Shown here piece after piece: positions 2,789 through 15,227 of a stretch of DNA of 15,227 bases. This DNA comes from Promethearchaeati archaeon (GTDB lineage Archaea; Asgardarchaeota; Heimdallarchaeia; JABLTI01). The notes under the pieces were generated by a model. The model saw only the letters and a list, made by a program, of their open reading frames with translations. It had not been told where the DNA came from and ran no database searches. Positions within the stretch are counted from its first letter, which is position 1; each line of letters begins with the position of its first letter. A program made the translations under genes and the position numbers. The stretch covers positions 1 through 15,227 of the forward strand of contig JABLTI010000068.1 in NCBI GenBank assembly GCA_013166835.1. Reading direction: 5' to 3'.

Positions 2789-4297
2789 TTGAGTAAGGTC
2801 GAATTTAAACAACTTTCTCCAGCTGATTTCTTTTATCGTAATAGAGAGCTAGCTGGTTTTGATTCTCCAGTTAAAAGTCTATATACTGCCTTCAGAGAGA
2901 TCATTGAGAACTCTTTTGATGGGGCGGAAATCGGTGGAATCAATCCGGATATTTTCGTATCGATCAAAGAAAAATCAGAAGATGTGTATACGATTTTCAT
3001 ATCCGATAATGGTATTGGAATACCTGGAAATAAGGTACCAAAAGCCTTGGCAAAACTTCTTTTTGGTGGGAAATATGTTGAACGCCAATCTCGAGGGCAT
3101 TTTGGTCTAGGGGCATCTATGACTGTTTTATACTCACAAATCACAACAAATCTTCCAACACGTATCCTTAGTTGTACAAGAGGAAGTGATGTAATAGATG
3201 AATACCATTTAATGATTGATATCCAAAAAAATGAACCAATTATAAGATATCATAATCAAATACCAAATAAGAAGAAATGGCATGGAGTAGCTGTTGAAGT
3301 AAACATTGAAGGAGACTATAGAAGAGCTCATCCTAAAATATTGGATTATATTGAATCAACAGCATTGGTTGCCCCATATGCAAGTATTACGTTTATCGAT
3401 GCTTACGGTATTCTCTACAAATTCAACAAAGTTGTAGATGAAGTACCAAAACTTGGCAAAGCTGTTTTACCTCATCCAAGAGGAATTGATACTGAAAAAA
3501 TGCTGCGATTAATTAGAGTGGCAAGACAGAAATCTATGAAGAATTTCCTCACTAGCAATTTCCAACGTGTTGGTGATATAACAGCAACAAATTTCCTGAA
3601 ATATGTAAACATAAAACCTGACAAAGCCCCTGATCAGCTTGATCATGATGAAATCGTAAGATGTGTGCAAGGAATGAATTCTTTCGAAGACTTTCTTTCA
3701 CCTGAAACGAGGTGCCTATCACCTATAGGGGAAAATGTTCTAGAAGCTGGAATACGAAAAGAACTAGATCCGAAATTTATAACTACTGTGACCAGAAAAC
3801 CTCAAGCATATTCGGGGCATCCATTTGTTGTTGAAGTAGCCATGGCTTATGGGGGCAATAAAATTGAAACATCATCAGAACCTACACTGTTTCGTTTTGC
3901 AAATCGAATTCCATTGCTTTACGACCAATATGCTGATGTTGCTGCGAAAGTTATTCGCTCCTTTAATTGGCGGATGTATAAAGTTCCTCAAAGTGCAAAA
4001 CTAGCAATAATCACTCATATCGCTTCTACTAAAGTTCCTTATCGAACTGCTGGAAAAGAATCAATTTCAGATCGACCTGAATTGGAACGTGAAGTGAGAT
4101 TAGCCATGCAAGTTTGTGCCAGAAAGATGCGAGTCTACCTTTCTCGAATTGAGCGTGAAGAGCGATCTGCAAAAAGAGCAAGCATCTTTGAAAAGTACTT
4201 GCCATACATTGCACAATTTGCTACGAAGCTTAGTGGCAAAAAACAAGTTCCTCCTACAGATTTTGTAAAAGGAGGTAAGAAAGGAGATGACCAATAG
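2789..4297 (+). CDS. top6B: DNA topoisomerase VI subunit B
   Basis: SPADFFYRNRELAGF, GHKL motifs EIIENSFDG / DNGIGI / SRGHFGLG, PHPRG, H2TH region, GHPFVVE, RFANRIPLL, WxxY (WRMY), STKVPY...GKE; adjacent to top6A. Confidence 0.98.
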   Translation: MSKVEFKQLSPADFFYRNRELAGFDSPVKSLYTAFREIIENSFDGAEIGGINPDIFVSIKEKSEDVYTIFISDNGIGIPGNKVPKALAKLLFGGKYVERQSRGHFGLGASMTVLYSQITTNLPTRILSCTRGSDVIDEYHLMIDIQKNEPIIRYHNQIPNKKKWHGVAVEVNIEGDYRRAHPKILDYIESTALVAPYASITFIDAYGILYKFNKVVDEVPKLGKAVLPHPRGIDTEKMLRLIRVARQKSMKNFLTSNFQRVGDITATNFLKYVNIKPDKAPDQLDHDEIVRCVQGMNSFEDFLSPETRCLSPIGENVLEAGIRKELDPKFITTVTRKPQAYSGHPFVVEVAMAYGGNKIETSSEPTLFRFANRIPLLYDQYADVAAKVIRSFNWRMYKVPQSAKLAIITHIASTKVPYRTAGKESISDRPELEREVRLAMQVCARKMRVYLSRIEREERSAKRASIFEKYLPYIAQFATKLSGKKQVPPTDFVKGGKKGDDQ

Positions 4298-4315
4298 TCT
4301 CATAAGGTGAAAAAT

Positions 4316-5443
4316 ATGTCCAAAGAAACTAAAGAAAAAACTCATGCAGACAAAGTCAAAGATAAGTCATTTAAGAAACTCGTAGCACTTGGAAAAGATG
4401 TTTACAGTCAATTAGAAGAAGAAAAGTACCCGGATTTCGAAATGCCTTTACGTGCTAGTTCTAACATTTTCTACGATTTAAAAACAAGACAATATTCTGT
4501 TGGTAAGAAGAGAGTAAGAAGATCTGCCGGAAATGTTCGACATCTCAAACCATTCTTGCAAACAATGTTTGTAGCTTCTTTTGCTGCTCGGGATCTTTTG
4601 CAACCTGGTAGAACAAGCACCTTGAGAGACCTCTATTATTCCTCTGAATCAGCTATGGCAAAAATGTTCAATGACCAATCAGAATCTGATAATGTAATTA
4701 CTGATGTTGAAGCAATAATTGGAATGGCTCGAGAGGATTTCAACATTTTCCCAGATGCTAGGAGCACTATCTTCGGAGACCTCGTTGTCTCATTCCAGGA
4801 CAAGAAAACAAAACAGAAAAGAGAACTTAATCTAACATTTAATCCCGATGGGCAAACCATAGGCCCAACATTGGTCAAAAGTGATTTCGTAAAAACAGGT
4901 GCTGATAAAGTTATTTGCGTAGAATCAGGTGGTATGTTTCAAAGATTGATTGAAGAAGATGCTGATGAGCAATTCAACGCTATCTTAGTTCACCTCGCTG
5001 GTCAAGCACCAAGAGGAACTAGACGATTAATAAGAAGGATGAATCAAGAGCTAAAACTCCCTGTCTATGCATTTGTCGATGCTGATCCCTGGGGAATGCA
5101 CATCTATAATGTCATAGCTTCAGGTAGTGCTTCTGCTGCTCATTTAACTGGATTAACAACTCCTGATGCTATTTGGATGGGTTTAACTCCAACTGATATC
5201 ACTACCTATGATTTACCTACAGACAATTTTACTAAGGGAGACTTGAATCGAACTGTACAACTTATCAGAGATCCTCGCTATCAAAAACCATACCTCCAAA
5301 AGGAATTGAAGGTCTTTATGCAATTAAAGAAGAAAGCAGAGCAACAATCACTGACATCAAAAAGTCTTACTTTTGTTGTAGATGAGTATTTACCAGCAAA
5401 ATTCAATGAAATTGCAAAAATGCAAAGGGATGGAAAAATTTAG
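4316..5443 (+). CDS. top6A: DNA topoisomerase VI subunit A (Spo11 family)
   Basis: STLRDLYY (catalytic Tyr), FNDQSESD, TOPRIM Glu (VESGGMF) and DADPWG, KAEQQSL. Start moved to ATG 4316 because the ORF-track GTG at 4307 lies inside the SD AGGTGA. Confidence 0.98.
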   Translation: MSKETKEKTHADKVKDKSFKKLVALGKDVYSQLEEEKYPDFEMPLRASSNIFYDLKTRQYSVGKKRVRRSAGNVRHLKPFLQTMFVASFAARDLLQPGRTSTLRDLYYSSESAMAKMFNDQSESDNVITDVEAIIGMAREDFNIFPDARSTIFGDLVVSFQDKKTKQKRELNLTFNPDGQTIGPTLVKSDFVKTGADKVICVESGGMFQRLIEEDADEQFNAILVHLAGQAPRGTRRLIRRMNQELKLPVYAFVDADPWGMHIYNVIASGSASAAHLTGLTTPDAIWMGLTPTDITTYDLPTDNFTKGDLNRTVQLIRDPRYQKPYLQKELKVFMQLKKKAEQQSLTSKSLTFVVDEYLPAKFNEIAKMQRDGKI

Positions 5444-5529: not shown

Positions 5530-6147
5530 TTATTCTTGTTTTAGCAATTCCTTAATTTCTTGCAAAGTTGCTAGAATTTGCTGATTTACTCTTAATTGTT
5601 CTTGATATCCTAAATCTTGCTCTTCAACTTCTACACTAGCACGTGGTGTCATTGCTTGTAATGGTCTAATTTTTGCTATTAACTTATCATAGACTTCCTG
5701 GTAATTAACTAGTCCTTCTATGTTTTCTTCAGGTAAGGGTGTTCCACTATAACCAGCTGTGTGTAATCGTATGGTTCCAATTCCAAACATTCTATCAAAT
5801 AGACTTCTAAAAATAGCTAAATTTGTAACTGCACGGAAAGGTACATTTTTTTCGATTTTTTGAAAAACTCCACGACGGACTATCATTTCATTTACTTTTA
5901 ATTGGTAAATCATTGATTTATAGTAATATGAAAGATATATTATCCAGAGTATGTACCAAACTACAACTCCTCCTCCTGCAGCAAATAACACAATTAGAGC
6001 TGTTGTTTTATTTCCACCTCCAAAATATAATCCTAGGAAAATTGCTAGAACAATTATTAGACTGAAAAAGAGCCACATAAAAGAAACAAATTGTCTTTTT
6101 TGTAGATATTTTCTATCCGGACCAAATTCCATTAATTCTTTAGACAT
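5530..6147 (-). CDS. Membrane protein with bacterial PH domain (bPH_2 / YdbS-like)
   Basis: Two hydrophobic helices, then YQL...IVRRGVF...VPFRAVTNLAIFRSLFDRMFGIGTIRLHTAG...IEGL. Likely start ATG 6147 after GGAG; the ORF track uses TTG 6162. Confidence 0.88.
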   Translation of the reverse strand: MSKELMEFGPDRKYLQKRQFVSFMWLFFSLIIVLAIFLGLYFGGGNKTTALIVLFAAGGGVVVWYILWIIYLSYYYKSMIYQLKVNEMIVRRGVFQKIEKNVPFRAVTNLAIFRSLFDRMFGIGTIRLHTAGYSGTPLPEENIEGLVNYQEVYDKLIAKIRPLQAMTPRASVEVEEQDLGYQEQLRVNQQILATLQEIKELLKQE

Positions 6148-6165
6148 TTTATCATACTCCAATTT

Positions 6166-6777
6166 TTAGTGTTTGCGTTTTCCTATTAATTCTTTAATTT
6201 CTATGAATTCTTGTAGAATTGCCTTTCTAATTTCAATAATATCAGTTGATAAAACTTCAACAGGTAATTTTTCCTCAGCTTTAAGTGGAGTAATCCTACT
6301 GACAAGTTTTACACTGATCATTACTTTATCATAAATTTCATTGTAATTTGTTATCCCTTCTATCTTTAATTCAGGTGTTTTTTCCCCACTGTATCCTGCA
6401 GTTTGAATTTTTACCGAACCTATATAGAAGATTCTATCAATTGGATCTCTGGAAACTGTGATATTTGTTATAGATTGAAATGGGACAACTTTCACTTTTT
6501 TATGGAGAACTCCACGTTGAATGACTATTTCATGTTCTTCAATTTTATATTGAATTGATTTAAAGTAAAGAACATTAAAGATAATCCAACCTACTAGAAT
6601 AGTTGGAAATATAGCAGCCATTAAATACCAGAGAATTGGATCAAGTTCTATGTCTTTATCAAAATACCCTATTAAAATTGTTACTCCAAAAATAACAATT
6701 ACTGTGAAGAAAGCTACAATATTCCTTTTGTGTAAAAATCTTCCATGAGGTTTGAATGTTATTTCTTCCTTAATCAT
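6166..6777 (-). CDS. Membrane protein with bacterial PH domain (bPH_2 / YdbS-like), paralog of the downstream gene
   Basis: Two TM helices, then YKI...IQRGVL...VPFQSITNITVSRDPIDRIFYIGSVKIQTAGYSG...IEGI. Confidence 0.88.
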   Translation of the reverse strand: MIKEEITFKPHGRFLHKRNIVAFFTVIVIFGVTILIGYFDKDIELDPILWYLMAAIFPTILVGWIIFNVLYFKSIQYKIEEHEIVIQRGVLHKKVKVVPFQSITNITVSRDPIDRIFYIGSVKIQTAGYSGEKTPELKIEGITNYNEIYDKVMISVKLVSRITPLKAEEKLPVEVLSTDIIEIRKAILQEFIEIKELIGKRKH

Positions 6778-10151: not shown

Positions 10152-10757
10152 TTATTTGGATTTCGCATCTCTTGAAGCTTTATCCCATAATTCTCTAGCA
10201 CTCAATCTGAACATCTGTGCTCTATCTTCTAGAAATGCATAAACAGAACCATGCTTGGATCCTTGGAGGAGCATATGGATAGCGTCTCGAGCGACTTTTA
10301 GTCGTTCATATGGACCAATTATCCCTATAGTATTTCCAAATACAGAAATTCTAGTTCCAGTTGTTTCTTCTATTATCTTTCTGGTTCTCCCTTCCTTTCC
10401 GATAATTCTTCCTCGAAATCGAAGTAATTTATTTGGATTTGTTCCAACAACTAATTTCATATTAATAATTTCTAGATACATCTCTTCATCTAGGAGTGCA
10501 AATGCTACTTGAGGATTGAAACCTCTTCCAACTGCGTGTACAATATCTCTTGCTTTTATCACTAAGAAAGGATCAGTCATTTTCGGTTTAGAAGCGATTA
10601 TCACTTCACCTGAACCACTATGAATATCTATCTCTACTCCAGCTAAATCTTCTAATCGTTTCTTAACTCTGCCAGATGGTCCTATAAGTGCTCCTATTCT
10701 ATTCTGGGGTATCGTGACAACAAATTTTGATACTTCTTCTACTGGTTGAAAATCCAC
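10152..10757 (-). CDS. dim2: KH-domain pre-rRNA processing protein (archaeal Dim2/Pno1)
   Basis: IPQNRIGALIGPSG, AVGRGFNP, RGRIIGKEGRTRKIIE, GSKHGSVY; SD GGAGG; canonical position after rio1. Confidence 0.95.
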   Translation of the reverse strand: MDFQPVEEVSKFVVTIPQNRIGALIGPSGRVKKRLEDLAGVEIDIHSGSGEVIIASKPKMTDPFLVIKARDIVHAVGRGFNPQVAFALLDEEMYLEIINMKLVVGTNPNKLLRFRGRIIGKEGRTRKIIEETTGTRISVFGNTIGIIGPYERLKVARDAIHMLLQGSKHGSVYAFLEDRAQMFRLSARELWDKASRDAKSK

Positions 10758-10825: not shown

Positions 10826-11707
10826 TTAAAATTCAAACGCTTTTACCTTATCAGTAAGCGGTTCTCCAGTCAGTTTTTCAAATAAATCTTCAGCCTCAAT
10901 CACATCCACTTTTTGAGCTTTGAAATATCTTGTGATATTTTTTATGTCTCGATAGAGAAATATCTCTACGTAGGAGTGATCAAGTAGGACTGCTTGTGAT
11001 ATATCAATGAAGTAGACTTTTGGAGTATATATCATATTATATTCTGATAGATCTGCATGAACTAATCCTGCACCATGGTAAAGTAACTCTAGATTATCTA
11101 GTACTTCCATATATGTTTTCCTGGGTTTCTTTAGTTTCACATCTTTCATAAGAGGGTAAGGTAATTCTTTTTTACCAATGAACTCCATAACGACAACGTC
11201 TTTTACACAAGTAATTGGTTTTGGAATGGATACTTTTGCTTTATATGCTCGAGATAGGTTTTTGAATTCCTTTTTTGCCCAAGCATAAACAAATGACCTT
11301 TGATCTCTCTTGATTCTTGCAAATCGTGGGTCACCTATAATATAGATCTGTAATCCTTTGAAGATATTAGTAGAAGTTCTATAGATCTTGATAGCTAATT
11401 CTGAACCATCAGGTGCGTATCCATGGTAAACATTAGCTTCTTTTCCAGTTGAAATAACACCCGTCATATAATCAATTATTTTCCTTTTTCGCAAATTGAA
11501 TAGAGTTGTTTTGGTTTCAACGTCAAGAACAGATTCAGCTACCTTTAATGCGTCACTGTCCTTTACTTTGATGTTCTTCTCATCAATTTTATCTATCTGT
11601 AATTGATCTGCATCCTTTAGCTCTCTTGTAATCCTAATATCCTCTTCTACTTCTAGTAATTCTTCTTCTGCTTTTTGTTTTTTTGATCGTTTTTTCTTCT
11701 TGGGCAT
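10826..11707 (-). CDS. rio1: RIO1 serine/threonine protein kinase
   Basis: ISTGKEANVY, AIKIYRTS, YIIGDPRF, WAKKEFKNL, VMEFIG, LVHADLSEYN, IDISQ; SD GGAGGTGA. Confidence 0.96.
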   Translation of the reverse strand: MPKKKKRSKKQKAEEELLEVEEDIRITRELKDADQLQIDKIDEKNIKVKDSDALKVAESVLDVETKTTLFNLRKRKIIDYMTGVISTGKEANVYHGYAPDGSELAIKIYRTSTNIFKGLQIYIIGDPRFARIKRDQRSFVYAWAKKEFKNLSRAYKAKVSIPKPITCVKDVVVMEFIGKKELPYPLMKDVKLKKPRKTYMEVLDNLELLYHGAGLVHADLSEYNMIYTPKVYFIDISQAVLLDHSYVEIFLYRDIKNITRYFKAQKVDVIEAEDLFEKLTGEPLTDKVKAFEF

Positions 11708-11853: not shown

Positions 11854-12255
11854 TTAATCTAATTTAATATAACCTTTCTTTTCTAACCAATCAGCTTGAT
11901 TTCTATTATAGCGATATACTAAATATGCACGAGTATTCACTTGGGTCTCAAAATCATACCAAGGCATAACACTTACGATATCATTTTGTCTAGTCCAAAG
12001 TCTTTTCCTGAATTTCCCAGGAATTATTACAATTCTTGTATGACCATCTGTACACCGAACTTGAAGTCGATCTGCTCCAAGGATCTGTGTGACAACACCA
12101 AGAACTTCACCTTCCTTAGGTAATCTGACTCTGATAGTTTCAGGTTGCCCTGTTGCTCCAGTGATTTTTATAGAAACGGATGGGTCTCTATCGTAACTCC
12201 TGCGTCTCTTTTGACCTTTTTTTGGTTTTCCTTTTTTCTGGCTTAAATTTTTCAC
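11854..12255 (-). CDS. eif1a: Translation initiation factor aIF-1A, with long basic N-terminal extension
   Basis: RVRLPKEGEVLGVVTQILGADRLQVRCTDG...IPGKFRKRLW...DIV...PW...YRY...ADWLEKKGYI OB-fold signature; upstream of rio1. Confidence 0.96.
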   Translation of the reverse strand: MKNLSQKKGKPKKGQKRRRSYDRDPSVSIKITGATGQPETIRVRLPKEGEVLGVVTQILGADRLQVRCTDGHTRIVIIPGKFRKRLWTRQNDIVSVMPWYDFETQVNTRAYLVYRYNRNQADWLEKKGYIKLD

Positions 12256-12296
12256 ATTCCTTTAAATTATGATACTAAAAGGTAGTTTGGGTCTCT

Positions 12297-12314
12297 AACT
12301 AAAAAGTCTTTGGA
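12297..12314 (-). promoter_or_regulatory. Putative BRE/TATA promoter of the aIF-1A-rio1-KH operon
   Basis: Minus strand CCAAAGACTTTTTAG about 45 nt upstream of GTG 12255; same core as the GGR promoter. Confidence 0.5.
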
Positions 12315-12526
12315 TTAAAAGGTGCGTTTTTGCTGTTTTTTTCAATTTTCAACACTTTTCTCTCATAATTTGATATAAATTGAATGTTTTTGATCACTTA
12401 TTGGTCAATAGAAATCAATAAGATAGGTAGAAACTTTTATGAGAAAAAATTATATTATAGATTAATCATTAACACAATGACAAGTGGCTGTTAATAATAA
12501 GTAATAGGCAGAATGAGGGTTTTTGA

Positions 12527-13570
12527 GTGAATTCAAGGAGAAATGTGATTATACAGAATAATTCTTCTGATGAAAATATCTATCTTAGTAAGGTGCTTTT
12601 GTTCACTCAAGATGCTATTGGTTTAGCAGAAAACCTCAAAGCTTTTTCAGAATCCACAGTTAATACAAATTGTTTGAATACTATAGGTATGTATCCTCTA
12701 ATTTTTCGATTAGAAACTCCTCTTGGTAAATTGTGTATGTCTATTTGGATCATTAATGATAGTCCTCGTTTCAATCAATTCAGAATGGCTTATTACTCGG
12801 GTTCATCACATTCGGTAATTCTATTTAGCGATCAAGAAGAAAATGAAAATATCTCCAATTTATATTCTATAACACCTCAAGGTGTTCCAACAACAATTCT
12901 TAAAGTTGGAAATAACATTGAAAATTCCGAAAATACTCTCCCGAATTCTATCCCTGATGAAGAACATCGAAGTCCAATATACTTCAAAACAATTAGTGAA
13001 ATACAAACGATTTCAACAGTTTTTAATGAGATAGGAATGAAAATCGCTCAGGATATTCTTTCTGGTGAATATCAGACTTTCTCACCTCAATTAATTAAAC
13101 CTTCAAATGTCTTCAAACTTTATAACAAGAAATCGTTTGATAAAGCTCAAAGTTTAGTAAAACGATTAGGTTATGATCTTCAAGAAAATGGCATAGTTAC
13201 GATTATAAAAGATGGATTCACTTTTGATATTGATTTCTATCGAAATCAAGTGAAAGCATTCATAACCTCTTGTCTTGATTGTGAAAAAGGATGCAAACAC
13301 TATCGAAAATTGTGTGTTATTGAAGAAGATCAAGGTTTTTCTAATTTCATTCATTTTGATAATTTACGTGCTCTAGCTATACTCTATTCTATTCATGATG
13401 GTAATTTTGTGAACTTAATTGGTGCACGAAAACATGAGGACATCGATTATCAATTAAAGAAACTGAGGAGCTTATACGAAGTAAATTGTGATTATCATAA
13501 GGATGAACAATCCTTTTTGGAACTAGAATCTCAGAACTCGAAAAAAGCTAAACGTCTTCGAAAGAAATAA
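12527..13570 (+). CDS. Rab-like small GTPase-fold protein with degenerate G motifs (pseudo-GTPase) fused to a Cys/His-rich C-terminal domain
   Basis: Residues 22-101 align without gaps, by eye, to the Rab1-type consensus (KVLL..G / TIG / IW....RF....YYxG). G1, G3 and G4 are degenerate. C-terminal CLDCEKGCKH..C..C..H and a KKAKRLRKK tail. Alternative start GTG 12545 after AGGAG. Confidence 0.8.
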   Translation: MNSRRNVIIQNNSSDENIYLSKVLLFTQDAIGLAENLKAFSESTVNTNCLNTIGMYPLIFRLETPLGKLCMSIWIINDSPRFNQFRMAYYSGSSHSVILFSDQEENENISNLYSITPQGVPTTILKVGNNIENSENTLPNSIPDEEHRSPIYFKTISEIQTISTVFNEIGMKIAQDILSGEYQTFSPQLIKPSNVFKLYNKKSFDKAQSLVKRLGYDLQENGIVTIIKDGFTFDIDFYRNQVKAFITSCLDCEKGCKHYRKLCVIEEDQGFSNFIHFDNLRALAILYSIHDGNFVNLIGARKHEDIDYQLKKLRSLYEVNCDYHKDEQSFLELESQNSKKAKRLRKK

Positions 13571-13703: not shown

Positions 13704-15227
13704 ATGAGTATACAAAAAGAAAATGTTATTCCATTTATTATGAGTCCGAAGGATGAGATTGTTCCTCTTGAAGCCGAATTTGCTTACATTGTCGGTGTTG
13801 TTGGAGATAAAATAAAGAAGGGTGGGATTTTCAAACGTTCCAAGGAACAATTAACTCAAGTCTCAAAATTCTATTGGCGATTAATGGTTGATACAATTCA
13901 CAACCGAATTATCCTGGTAGACTCCTTAGGAATTTATGGCGGTGGTGCAGAAGTTCAAGACTTATCATTATCAAATGTTTTTGCACAGCTAAAAGCCATA
14001 CAAGATGCAACTACTGTTAAAGCCTATACTGAGAATTTAGAGGAAGCCAATCAAGTTCTTATCTTAGCAACTGATAATTATCCGTTATTTGATGAAGAAT
14101 TCACACGTTCCACACTTGAATTAGTTAAACGTAGTGTCAGTGAGGATATGATCGATACTCCACTTATTTTGCCTTCTTTCGAAGACACAATGAGCAGCGA
14201 ATTGGTTCAATTGTTGAATGAAACTCCGAGATTTGATGAAGGACAAGAAATTTTACGAGAATTAGCTCAACAATGGCTTGCAGAAATAAATTCAGAAATC
14301 ACTACTATCGAACGAGATTATGCTGGGAGAATTGCTCGTAGACAAAGTGAAGTTGAAACTCGACTTGTACAGTATAAAGAGAAAATGGATCAAACAATTG
14401 ATTCCAATCTCGAAAAGGCAAACGAAGCGACTTTCAGAGAATTATCTAAATTCGAATCTAGTACTTTAGGATTAACAGGAATGATAAATCCTATTCAAGA
14501 GCATGCAAGGCAAATTCTTAATGAAGTGCCATCCATTGAAACACCCAAATTCCAAGAAAGTATGAAGAGTTTTCTAAATAAATCCAAAGGCCAAATAGAA
14601 AATATCTCTTCGAAAGTTAAAGAAATGGATGAAGATCGAAAAAATTTGGCAAAAGCGATCAATGGTATCACTAAAAAATTCATGGATGCTAAACAAAGTG
14701 CAATTGATGAATATGAAAATAATAAGGCTGTAGCTGAAAGAGAAGTTGATGAATTACGCATGACTCGAGATAGAGCATTGTCGAATCTTATGGAAATGCG
14801 AGAAAGTATAAAACAAAACACTGATTCAATTTGTAAGAAATTACAAAAAGTCCAGCAGAATCGTAAAGAAGCAATAAACAAGTCGACAACAAGTAGTAGT
14901 GCAGATATTCCAACAGATATTATTATTTCATTATACTTGATAAAATTCCAAGAGAAGAATGATATCAGATACTTTGTAATACCACCTTTAATTAGCCAAA
15001 GAGGTAGACGAGGAGCTGATTACCCAAATGCTGAAATGGATTCAGCTATTATTGGTGGAAAGAAGGTTGCTGACAAGCTCGCGGAAGAATTAGTATTTAA
15101 CCGAAGATTAAAAACCTCATTTGATGCTCTACGAGCAACCAACTACCTTGCAACTAGTGAATTTGTAGGGGCAGTTAGACAAGGTTTGGATTACCTTGTA
15201 CAAAACGAAATGCTAAGTAAGAAGGGG
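13704..15227 (+). CDS. Uncharacterised coiled-coil protein (>508 aa, truncated at the right edge)
   Basis: Open frame from ATG 13704 to the window end, absent from the ORF track because it has no stop: MSIQKENVIPFIMSPKDEIVPLEAEFAYIVG...KKGGIFKRSKEQLTQVSKFYW...; E/K/Q/R-rich heptad region at about 14240-14880; then ISLYLIKF...RYFVIPPL...VRQGLDYLVQNEMLSKKG. GGTG lies upstream of the ATG. Confidence 0.9.
   Translation, partial: MSIQKENVIPFIMSPKDEIVPLEAEFAYIVGVVGDKIKKGGIFKRSKEQLTQVSKFYWRLMVDTIHNRIILVDSLGIYGGGAEVQDLSLSNVFAQLKAIQDATTVKAYTENLEEANQVLILATDNYPLFDEEFTRSTLELVKRSVSEDMIDTPLILPSFEDTMSSELVQLLNETPRFDEGQEILRELAQQWLAEINSEITTIERDYAGRIARRQSEVETRLVQYKEKMDQTIDSNLEKANEATFRELSKFESSTLGLTGMINPIQEHARQILNEVPSIETPKFQESMKSFLNKSKGQIENISSKVKEMDEDRKNLAKAINGITKKFMDAKQSAIDEYENNKAVAEREVDELRMTRDRALSNLMEMRESIKQNTDSICKKLQKVQQNRKEAINKSTTSSSADIPTDIIISLYLIKFQEKNDIRYFVIPPLISQRGRRGADYPNAEMDSAIIGGKKVADKLAEELVFNRRLKTSFDALRATNYLATSEFVGAVRQGLDYLVQNEMLSKKG

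Follow-up and report, generated by a model that had tools for sequence, protein, structure and literature searches.

A candidate pseudoGTPase that joins a Rab-like domain to a five-cysteine domain in a Heimdallarchaeial lineage

Can a protein without the nucleotide-binding motifs of small GTPases still carry a Rab-like domain, and what would be left for such a domain to do? The question is raised by a gene near the end of a 15,227-nucleotide stretch of DNA (the window), contig JABLTI010000068.1 of assembly GCA_013166835.1, from a Promethearchaeati archaeon of the Heimdallarchaeia (Asgardarchaeota). An initial annotation, made from the letters alone, had described positions 12590-13057 as a catalytically dead Rab-like G domain. 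These positions correspond to residues 22-177 of a 347-residue open reading frame (ORF), and the computational evidence gives good support to the pseudoGTPase reading. The initial annotation was right about the Rab-like N-terminal half, but it took the G domain to stand alone and overlooked a second, cysteine-rich domain, a polybasic tail, a wider family of two-domain proteins and a conserved neighbour. A better description of the gene product is a two-domain protein consisting of a pseudo-Rab domain and a cysteine domain, with a dead paralogue, partly intact Asgard relatives and a conserved coiled-coil neighbour.

Fold and nucleotide-binding motifs of the N-terminal domain

A search of a large protein collection with the 347-residue protein returned 42 matches, nearly all of them 337-353 residues long and with identities reaching down to 41%. 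Those that bear a name are called hypothetical protein and come from Heimdallarchaeota or 'Asgard group' records, and no NCBIfam model matched either the window protein or its paralogue (see below), in line with the expectation that annotation pipelines would call the protein hypothetical. The window protein and 41 of the 42 matches were aligned (alignment A1, mean column identity 63%), with the exclusion of a 205-residue fragment, P0042; all counts out of 42 given below refer to this alignment.

When the A1 profile was used to search the PDB, the best 60 of the 192 rows at E ≤ 10 were all Rab, Ypt or Sec4 proteins, with Ypt1, Rab1, Rab8 and Sec4 at the top. The match with Ypt1 (2bcg_Y) joined query residues 17-180 to chain residues 5-174 with an E value of 4.9e-07 and 32.1 bits. 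In this hidden Markov model alignment no gap occurs between about positions 17 and 95, from the first strand through YYxG, and TQDAIGLA is paired with GNSGVGKS (G1), W-IINDS with W-DTAGQ (G3), and the threonine of NTIG with that of STIG. The gap-free, block-for-block match to Rab1-type proteins that had been proposed by eye was thus recovered with the same G1, switch I and G3 pairings. A structural model predicted by AlphaFold2 from A1 had a mean predicted local distance difference test (pLDDT) score of 77.7, with values of 85-94 across most of residues 20-130. Structure searches with Foldseek and VIA found in this model the G-domain fold, a central beta-sheet with flanking helices, and among the rows shown the Rabs come first and other nucleotide-binding GTPases later. 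Foldseek ranked Rab8a at 4.7e-9, and the matches to Rab8a, Rab1b and Rab10 span about 5e-9 to 1e-8. As predicted, the N-terminal domain has a Ras/Rab fold, which is what the initial annotation had expected a structure search to return.

The motifs that make a GTPase are missing across the family. Neither the G1 pattern GxxxxGK[ST], the G3 pattern DxxG[QHTE] nor the G5 pattern SA[KLA] was found in any of the 42 sequences, GK[ST] does not occur within their first 200 residues, and the G4 pattern [NT]KxD occurs somewhere within those residues in 3 of 42. The NNIE reported in place of G4 does correspond to residues 129-132 of the window protein, but it is not a conserved replacement, since the mean top-residue frequency of the G4 loop and the insertion that follows it (residues 128-150) is 0.35, the minimum for the domain. 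At the P-loop position D29 is found in 30 of 42 sequences, and the frequency over the equivalent of the P-loop and helix 1 (residues 27-47) is 0.58.

The switch face, on the other hand, is kept: T52 (40/42), I53 (41/42) and G54 (41/42); W74 (42/42), R81 (39/42) and F82 (42/42); and Y89 (41/42), Y90 (37/42, with phenylalanine in the other five) and G92 (42/42) in YYxG. Invariant positions are M55, P57, W74, I76, F82, F85 and G92, and residues 48-76 reach a mean top-residue frequency of 0.84, the highest in the domain apart from strand 1. Both the loss of G1, G3, G4 and SAK and the retention of TIG, W, RF and YY are therefore family-wide, as had been surmised from the single sequence. The retained residues include IG of RabF1, IW of RabF2, RF of RabF3 and YYxG of RabF4, while RabF5 is unrecognisable. 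The RabF motifs were reportedly defined by Pereira-Leal and Seabra in 2000. They are described as diagnostic for Rabs in the available part of PMC4915359. Judged from the alignment, the conservation pattern is the inverse of that of a working GTPase and, with G1, G3, G4 and G5 lost, the N-terminal domain is most likely unable to bind or to hydrolyse GTP.

To what extent such a gene is still under selection was assessed with the ratio of nonsynonymous to synonymous substitution rates (dN/dS), which was calculated by the Nei-Gojobori method after the window gene and eight related loci had been aligned by codon (L001-L006, L008 and L009). In five close pairs (synonymous divergence, dS, 0.12-0.68) dN/dS was 0.10-0.17 for the N-terminal domain, 0.04-0.26 for the C-terminal domain and about 0.10-0.21 for the whole gene; in more distant pairs the synonymous sites were saturated. 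These low ratios indicate purifying selection and therefore a gene that is not decaying, so that relaxed selection on a decaying copy, named in the initial annotation as a possible objection, is rejected.

One orthologue, at L007:1544-2590 in another Heimdallarchaeial metagenome-assembled genome, contains a single in-frame TGA in a frame that is otherwise intact and conserved. The codon falls on a variable residue after LxG, at about residue 300, and could be due to an error in sequencing, a strain-level nonsense allele or recoding.

Expression support for the gene is weak. Only one metatranscriptome run matched the window, with four short contigs, and the uncovered parts carry no meaning. Two 151-nucleotide contigs with 1-2 differences fall within the ORF (12696-12846 and 12897-13047), one of 151 nucleotides lies in the eIF1A gene, and another lies in the coiled-coil gene and, with 14 differences, comes from a relative.

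The cysteine domain and the wider two-domain family

The C-terminal domain (residues 200-325) is as conserved in A1 as the switch face, with mean top-residue frequencies of 0.71-0.83. Five cysteines, C249, C252, C256, C263 and C321, are invariant in A1; in the wider two-domain family C256, C263 and C321 are likewise invariant, and C249 and C252 are present in at least 90% of the proteins. Folded alone on its own alignment (A2), the domain gave a model with a pLDDT of 90.2 and a predicted template modelling (pTM) score of 0.81, in which a helix is followed by three strands, a short helix, a fourth strand and further helices. Foldseek returned no confident fold for this model (best E 0.089), the PDB sequence-profile search with the domain alone gave no match, and neither a Pfam family nor an ESM Atlas match was obtained. 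E2, UEV or RWD entries, whose topology fits, make up many of the weak rows returned by VIA, and the fold is left without a name because these rows fall below VIA's noise guide. The roadblock/longin fold does not appear among the structure-search matches listed. From its five conserved cysteines, the domain probably holds a metal, either zinc or an iron-sulphur cluster.

The last 20 residues contain a median of seven lysines or arginines, with a net charge of at least +4 in 30 of 42 sequences, and none of the 42 tails listed ends in the CC or CxC of a prenylated C-terminus. In distant two-domain relatives (P0055, P0062, P0070, P0071, P0075 and others) we noted an extra conserved C-terminal helix with the motif TLLRN...G.LP.S.Y..LK, which is absent from the window family.

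The two-domain layout extends beyond the close homologues. At E ≤ 0.001, an exhaustive search with the profile yielded 91 proteins, including proteins of 300-390 residues that match both domains, and a search with 15 of the latter (A3) returned 20 proteins, whose named members include a 'Rab family GTPase [Candidatus Helarchaeota archaeon]' and a hypothetical protein of Thorarchaeota. When the two-domain proteins were aligned with canonical small GTPases, P0135 was found to carry GDVAVGKT, DIAGQ and NKVE, P0064 to carry GAVGTGKT and DIAAQ, and P0137 to carry GDAGTNKT, DIAGQ and TKAD. Most others have no P-loop, often with the aspartate after the tryptophan kept, and the window family, the paralogue family and a Thor-type group have none of the G motifs. 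From these alignments the two-domain proteins appear as a gradient of decay, with P0135 the most intact and P0064 and P0137 intermediate. P0135 also matches the TIGR00231 small_GTP model with 57.2 bits, above its cut-off of 42.5.

In the same genome as the window gene there are 30 matches to the Pfam Ras family (PF00071), all above the cut-off, together with one paralogue of the two-domain family (G000:C69:2964-3653; ORF L011:1231-2196, 321 residues). This paralogue is likewise without G motifs, and it lies in a different neighbourhood with no coiled-coil neighbour. We surveyed 301 genomes sampled from the phylum. Within the window's genus, 10 of 11 genomes have orthologue-level matches (E ≤ 1e-150), the sole miss being 83% complete, and paralogue-level matches were also present in 10 of 11, the sole miss being 90% complete; nine of the 11 have both. 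Outside the family, nearly all matches span the G-domain part only, and in the genomes searched the two-domain protein of the window gene is confined to one Heimdallarchaeial family. Of the genus's ten matches at paralogue level, six were flagged with one or two internal stops, maybe because the profile overran the natural stop.

The phylogeny with Asgard small GTPases that the initial annotation had called for was inferred as a quick maximum-likelihood tree of 78 G domains, which included 24 of the 30 PF00071 matches after six partial ones were excluded. The window family forms a single group (96*), and its sister is the paralogue family (support of 90 in the Shimodaira-Hasegawa-like approximate likelihood ratio test, SH-aLRT). 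Deep placements are unsure because of several long branches and the quick method.

Mode of action, alternatives and relation to known systems

We consider it likely that the protein is a pseudoGTPase of the type termed class i, which would act as a constitutive binding module with a probable metal-holding C-terminal domain and a basic tether. Its N-terminal domain would descend from an Asgard Rab-like GTPase that lost the P-loop, DxxG, NKxD and SAK while the switch I-interswitch-switch II face was retained under strong purifying selection. Rabs contact their exchange factors and effectors through this very face. Because the face is kept without the nucleotide motifs, the likely mode is that of a protein-binding module that would be permanently 'set', to which the five-cysteine domain would add a probable metal site (zinc or iron-sulphur), and which the polybasic tail could tether to an acidic surface, a membrane or RNA. 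The roles of scaffold, decoy or heterodimer partner offered in the initial annotation stand as candidates. The most likely partner would be the product of the downstream coiled-coil gene, which is adjacent and co-directional in nine of nine related loci, adjacent in all ten genus genomes with both genes on one contig, and adjacent by NCBI locus tag in six records; the paralogue would be the second candidate. A complex prediction for the coiled-coil protein (alignment A4) and the pseudo-Rab protein (A1) scored 0.00 in two runs with controls not folded, a result that weighs neither way.

Several observations weigh against the constitutive binding module, and some of them are shared with alternative explanations. 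As a single sequence, the protein matches Pfam Ras with an E value of 0.0035 and 17.4 bits, below the cut-off of 21.6, so that the single-sequence Rab signal is weak and significance comes with the family profile. The whole-protein model has a pTM of 0.50, and its Foldseek superpositions have root-mean-square deviations of 5-8 Å. The sub-threshold Pfam match is also what would speak for a Rab resemblance due to chance, or to generic similarity among P-loop NTPases without descent from a small GTPase, a possibility that we deem contradicted and of negligible probability. In the G-domain tree, the motif-bearing two-domain proteins of Helarchaeota (P0064, P0135, P0137 and P0140) keep G1 and G3 in their G domains and nest among single-domain Helarchaeota Rab-like GTPases (97*), and for this reason the C-terminal domain may have undergone repeated gain or loss, or else the dead G domains may have been misplaced by long branches. 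The two-domain proteins do not form one clade in this tree, where the label costs three changes, and the direction from intact to lost motifs is therefore a matter of parsimony rather than of a rooted tree. The contigs from the RNA library may come from contaminating DNA. As for the gene pair, synteny in this narrow clade takes in the entire neighbourhood, with the GNAT gene at one end and the ABC transporter gene at the other, so that adjacency is weak evidence for a functional link and maybe reflects shared ancestry only. A degenerating Rab-like duplicate under relaxed selection, on its way to becoming a pseudogene, would fit both the disappearance of every catalytic motif and the in-frame TGA of L007, but it is very improbable in view of the whole-gene dN/dS in close pairs, the 42 homologues of near-constant length at identities as low as 41%, the sharp conservation of W74, F82, F85, G92 and the five cysteines, and the presence of the orthologue throughout all but one of the genus genomes.

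Some proteins without canonical motifs bind nucleotides anyway, and structural models are silent on ligands, which also counts against the proposed module. That the N-terminal domain has kept some non-canonical way of binding a nucleotide or a different phosphate ligand, as a non-cycling pseudoGTPase or an atypical switch, seems unlikely to us. The switch I threonine, T52, and D29 are both widely retained in A1, and the relatives P0135 and P0064 keep GxxxxGKT, from which it follows that the ancestor bound nucleotide; the available part of the AAGAB paper (PMC12490416) adds that, for motif-less proteins, an unidentified factor promoting binding is not fully excludable. However, GK[ST] and DxxG are absent as described above, the guanine-specificity motifs occur in none of the sequences, and the variability of the P-loop-equivalent segment is unlike that of a ligand site. 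Similarly unlikely, and compatible with the binding module, is a role connected with the biogenesis of the small ribosomal subunit or with the initiation of translation, in which the gene would be co-regulated with the eIF1A, RIO and KH genes from the divergent promoter region and the tail would bind ribosomal RNA. The divergent eIF1A-RIO-KH cluster is kept upstream in all loci that reach there (L001 and L003-L009; L007 extends only as far as eIF1A and part of RIO), the tail is polybasic, and a metatranscriptome contig lies in the eIF1A gene as well. Yet the eIF1A-RIO-KH cluster is widespread among archaea, also where there is no pseudo-Rab gene, the wider neighbourhood is syntenic in any case, and no RNA-binding domain was detected in the protein by the Pfam searches.

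The constitutive binding module may also be compared with systems already described. In length and layout the protein is similar to Rag/Gtr proteins, with a G-like domain followed by a C-terminal domain of about 150 residues and with two paralogues, both found in nine of the 11 genus genomes. Rag/Gtr proteins consist of a G domain and a C-terminal dimerisation domain, and they form heterodimers of two paralogues. With the Asgard Rab-like GTPases, such as Thor-Rab (PMC10933270) and the family of Rab-like proteins in archaea (PMC4915359), it has in common the G-domain fold and the Rab-type switch and interswitch residues. In the available literature the archaeal Rab-like proteins are described as short, nucleotide-binding and devoid of a polybasic region, PMC4915359 reports neither an extended C-terminal region nor a polybasic one for them, and, as in the window protein, C-terminal prenylation cysteines are missing. 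In contrast, the window protein is without G1, G3, G4 and G5 and adds a five-cysteine domain of about 150 residues and a polybasic tail.

Among eukaryotic proteins, the nearest counterparts in kind are the class i pseudoGTPases, exemplified by the N-terminal domain of AAGAB, CENP-M and the dynein light intermediate chain, which have a GTPase fold with the G-motif residues absent and which, according to the available part of PMC12490416, serve as protein-interaction or assembly modules. The window protein shares the fold, as seen on the predicted model, and the absence of the G-motif residues. None of the three eukaryotic proteins was among the PDB-profile, Foldseek and VIA matches listed, and no sequence relationship was detected. 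There are two further differences: the interface of the AAGAB domain, as presented in the available text of PMC12490416, differs from the switch face that is conserved in the window family, and the absence of nucleotide binding was measured for AAGAB in that study whereas for the window protein it is deduced from motifs.

A more far-reaching version, which we hold to be improbable, is that the Rab-like domain is frozen in the empty, exchange-factor-bound shape and sits permanently on its coiled-coil partner, in the manner of Sec4 on Sec2, with a metal- or redox-sensitive cysteine domain replacing the GTP switch and the basic tail placing the complex on a membrane. The hints for it are the top matches to Ypt1, Rab1, Rab8 and Sec4, the conserved coiled-coil neighbour, and the complexes from which the best structural matches stem. 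The three top VIA rows pair a Rab with an exchange factor (Rab23 with Fuzzy/Inturned, Ypt32 with TRAPPII, and Sec4 with Sec2), and Foldseek's three top chains (Rab8a, Rab1b and Rab10) also come from exchange-factor complexes, a hint only because rows within one Z unit are ties. If true, the eukaryotic scaffolds built on spent GTPases would have an archaeal forerunner in this protein, in the lineage closest to eukaryotes.

The large Rab-, Arf- and Rag-like GTPase families of Asgard archaea are taken to be the stock from which eukaryotic membrane traffic was built, and the work that we found on them treats them as switches. The binding module proposed here would mean that a Rab-like domain was converted in one Heimdallarchaeial lineage to a module that does not switch, with the partner-binding face kept and linked to a cysteine domain that is itself undescribed. 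Those relatives in which the P-loop is retained would supply a natural series from active to dead, and the 347-residue protein would be a tractable, soluble test case for partners of the Asgard Rab-like face. The family bears on whether pseudoGTPase scaffolds predate eukaryotes. The novelty claimed for such a domain in a prokaryote was overstated, since, according to the abstract of PMC12490416, pseudoGTPases are known in organisms ranging from bacteria to human, but no archaeal or Asgard pseudoGTPase was found in a full-text literature search, although the asCOG lists may already contain the family without comment. Two papers contain both 'archaea' and 'pseudoGTPase', and both are general reviews; in the available portion of one of them, PMC10211241, 'archaea' occurs in the pseudokinase part only. 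No published description of the family was found in the accessible text of the Asgard GTPase and pseudoGTPase literature, including PMC12962969 and bioRxiv 10.1101/2020.10.19.343400.

Gene neighbourhood and features of the window

The coordinates of the gene, its parts and its neighbours are given in the table below.

Table. Positions of the pseudo-Rab gene, its domains and motifs, and adjacent genes in the 15,227-nucleotide window
Feature	Position	Strand	Remarks
Whole ORF: pseudo-Rab domain, linker, cysteine-rich C-terminal domain and polybasic tail	12527..13570	+	347 residues, GTG start
Small-GTPase (Rab-like) fold as predicted, nucleotide-binding motifs gone, residues 17-181	12575..13069	+	
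P-loop (G1) position, residues 26-34, FTQDAIGLA, without Gly-Lys-Ser/Thr	12602..12628	+	Ypt1 alignment
Switch I/interswitch/switch II equivalent, residues 48-93, NCLNTIGMYP...SIWII...RFxQFRxxYYSG, conserved surface	12668..12805	+	
G4 (NKxD) position, then length-variable, poorly modelled insertion, residues ~127-150	12905..12976	+	Insertions and deletions in A1; pLDDT 54-59 at 131-150
Conserved linker, residues 182-199, SGEYQTFxPQLxKPSN	13070..13123	+	Mean top-residue frequency 0.74; pLDDT <50 at 189-196
C-terminal alpha+beta domain, residues 200-325	13124..13501	+	
Cysteine cluster C249-x2-C252-x3-C256-x6-C263, with K257 and H258	13271..13315	+	Cysteines invariant in A1
Fifth conserved cysteine, C321	13487-13489	+	Invariant in A1
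Tail, residues 326-347, sequence-variable, polybasic, ends KKAKRLRKK	13502..13567	+	
Downstream coiled-coil gene, ~521 residues	13692..15227	+	Probable start MSIQ at 13704; cut by contig end
Divergent intergenic region, eIF1A (-) to pseudo-Rab gene (+)	12256..12526	.	271 bp
eIF1A gene	11854-12255	-	Pfam
RIO kinase gene	10826-11707	-	Pfam
Two-KH-domain Krr1/Pno1-like gene	10152-10757	-	Pfam

The coiled-coil ORF begins 121 bases 3' of the pseudo-Rab gene on the same strand, and its product has conserved N- and C-terminal parts around a long central coiled coil. Searches of Pfam, NCBIfam and the PDB assigned this protein to no family and returned coiled-coil noise alone, while the Atlas gave unnamed archaeal clusters of low recognition value. 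Its 37 homologues come from the same kinds of record as those of the pseudo-Rab protein. In the two genomes of the family that yielded no orthologue, G199 and G256, the match to the coiled-coil gene is confined to its 3' part (profile positions 156-521 and 250-521, respectively), and the match in G256 begins at contig base 4. The last 61 residues of the coiled-coil gene product match the start of another contig of the same genome (G000:C77:1-183), and for this reason the window contig, which ends at 15227, and C77 probably abut.

Distant relatives of the coiled-coil protein also occur in other Asgard families (genomes G047, G070, G052, G028, G038 and others), as open frames of 575-720 residues, most of which match the profile at about positions 287-512. 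In the genomes checked by coordinates, these genes do not lie beside a two-domain relative of the pseudo-Rab gene.

Elsewhere in the window, two tandem genes on the minus strand (5530-6777) each encode a bacterial PH (bPH_2) domain together with a weak DUF7642 match. A 445-residue ORF at 1148-2485 on the plus strand, upstream of the genes for topoisomerase VI B and A (2789-5443), gave no Pfam match above threshold, with AATase at an E value of 0.00084.

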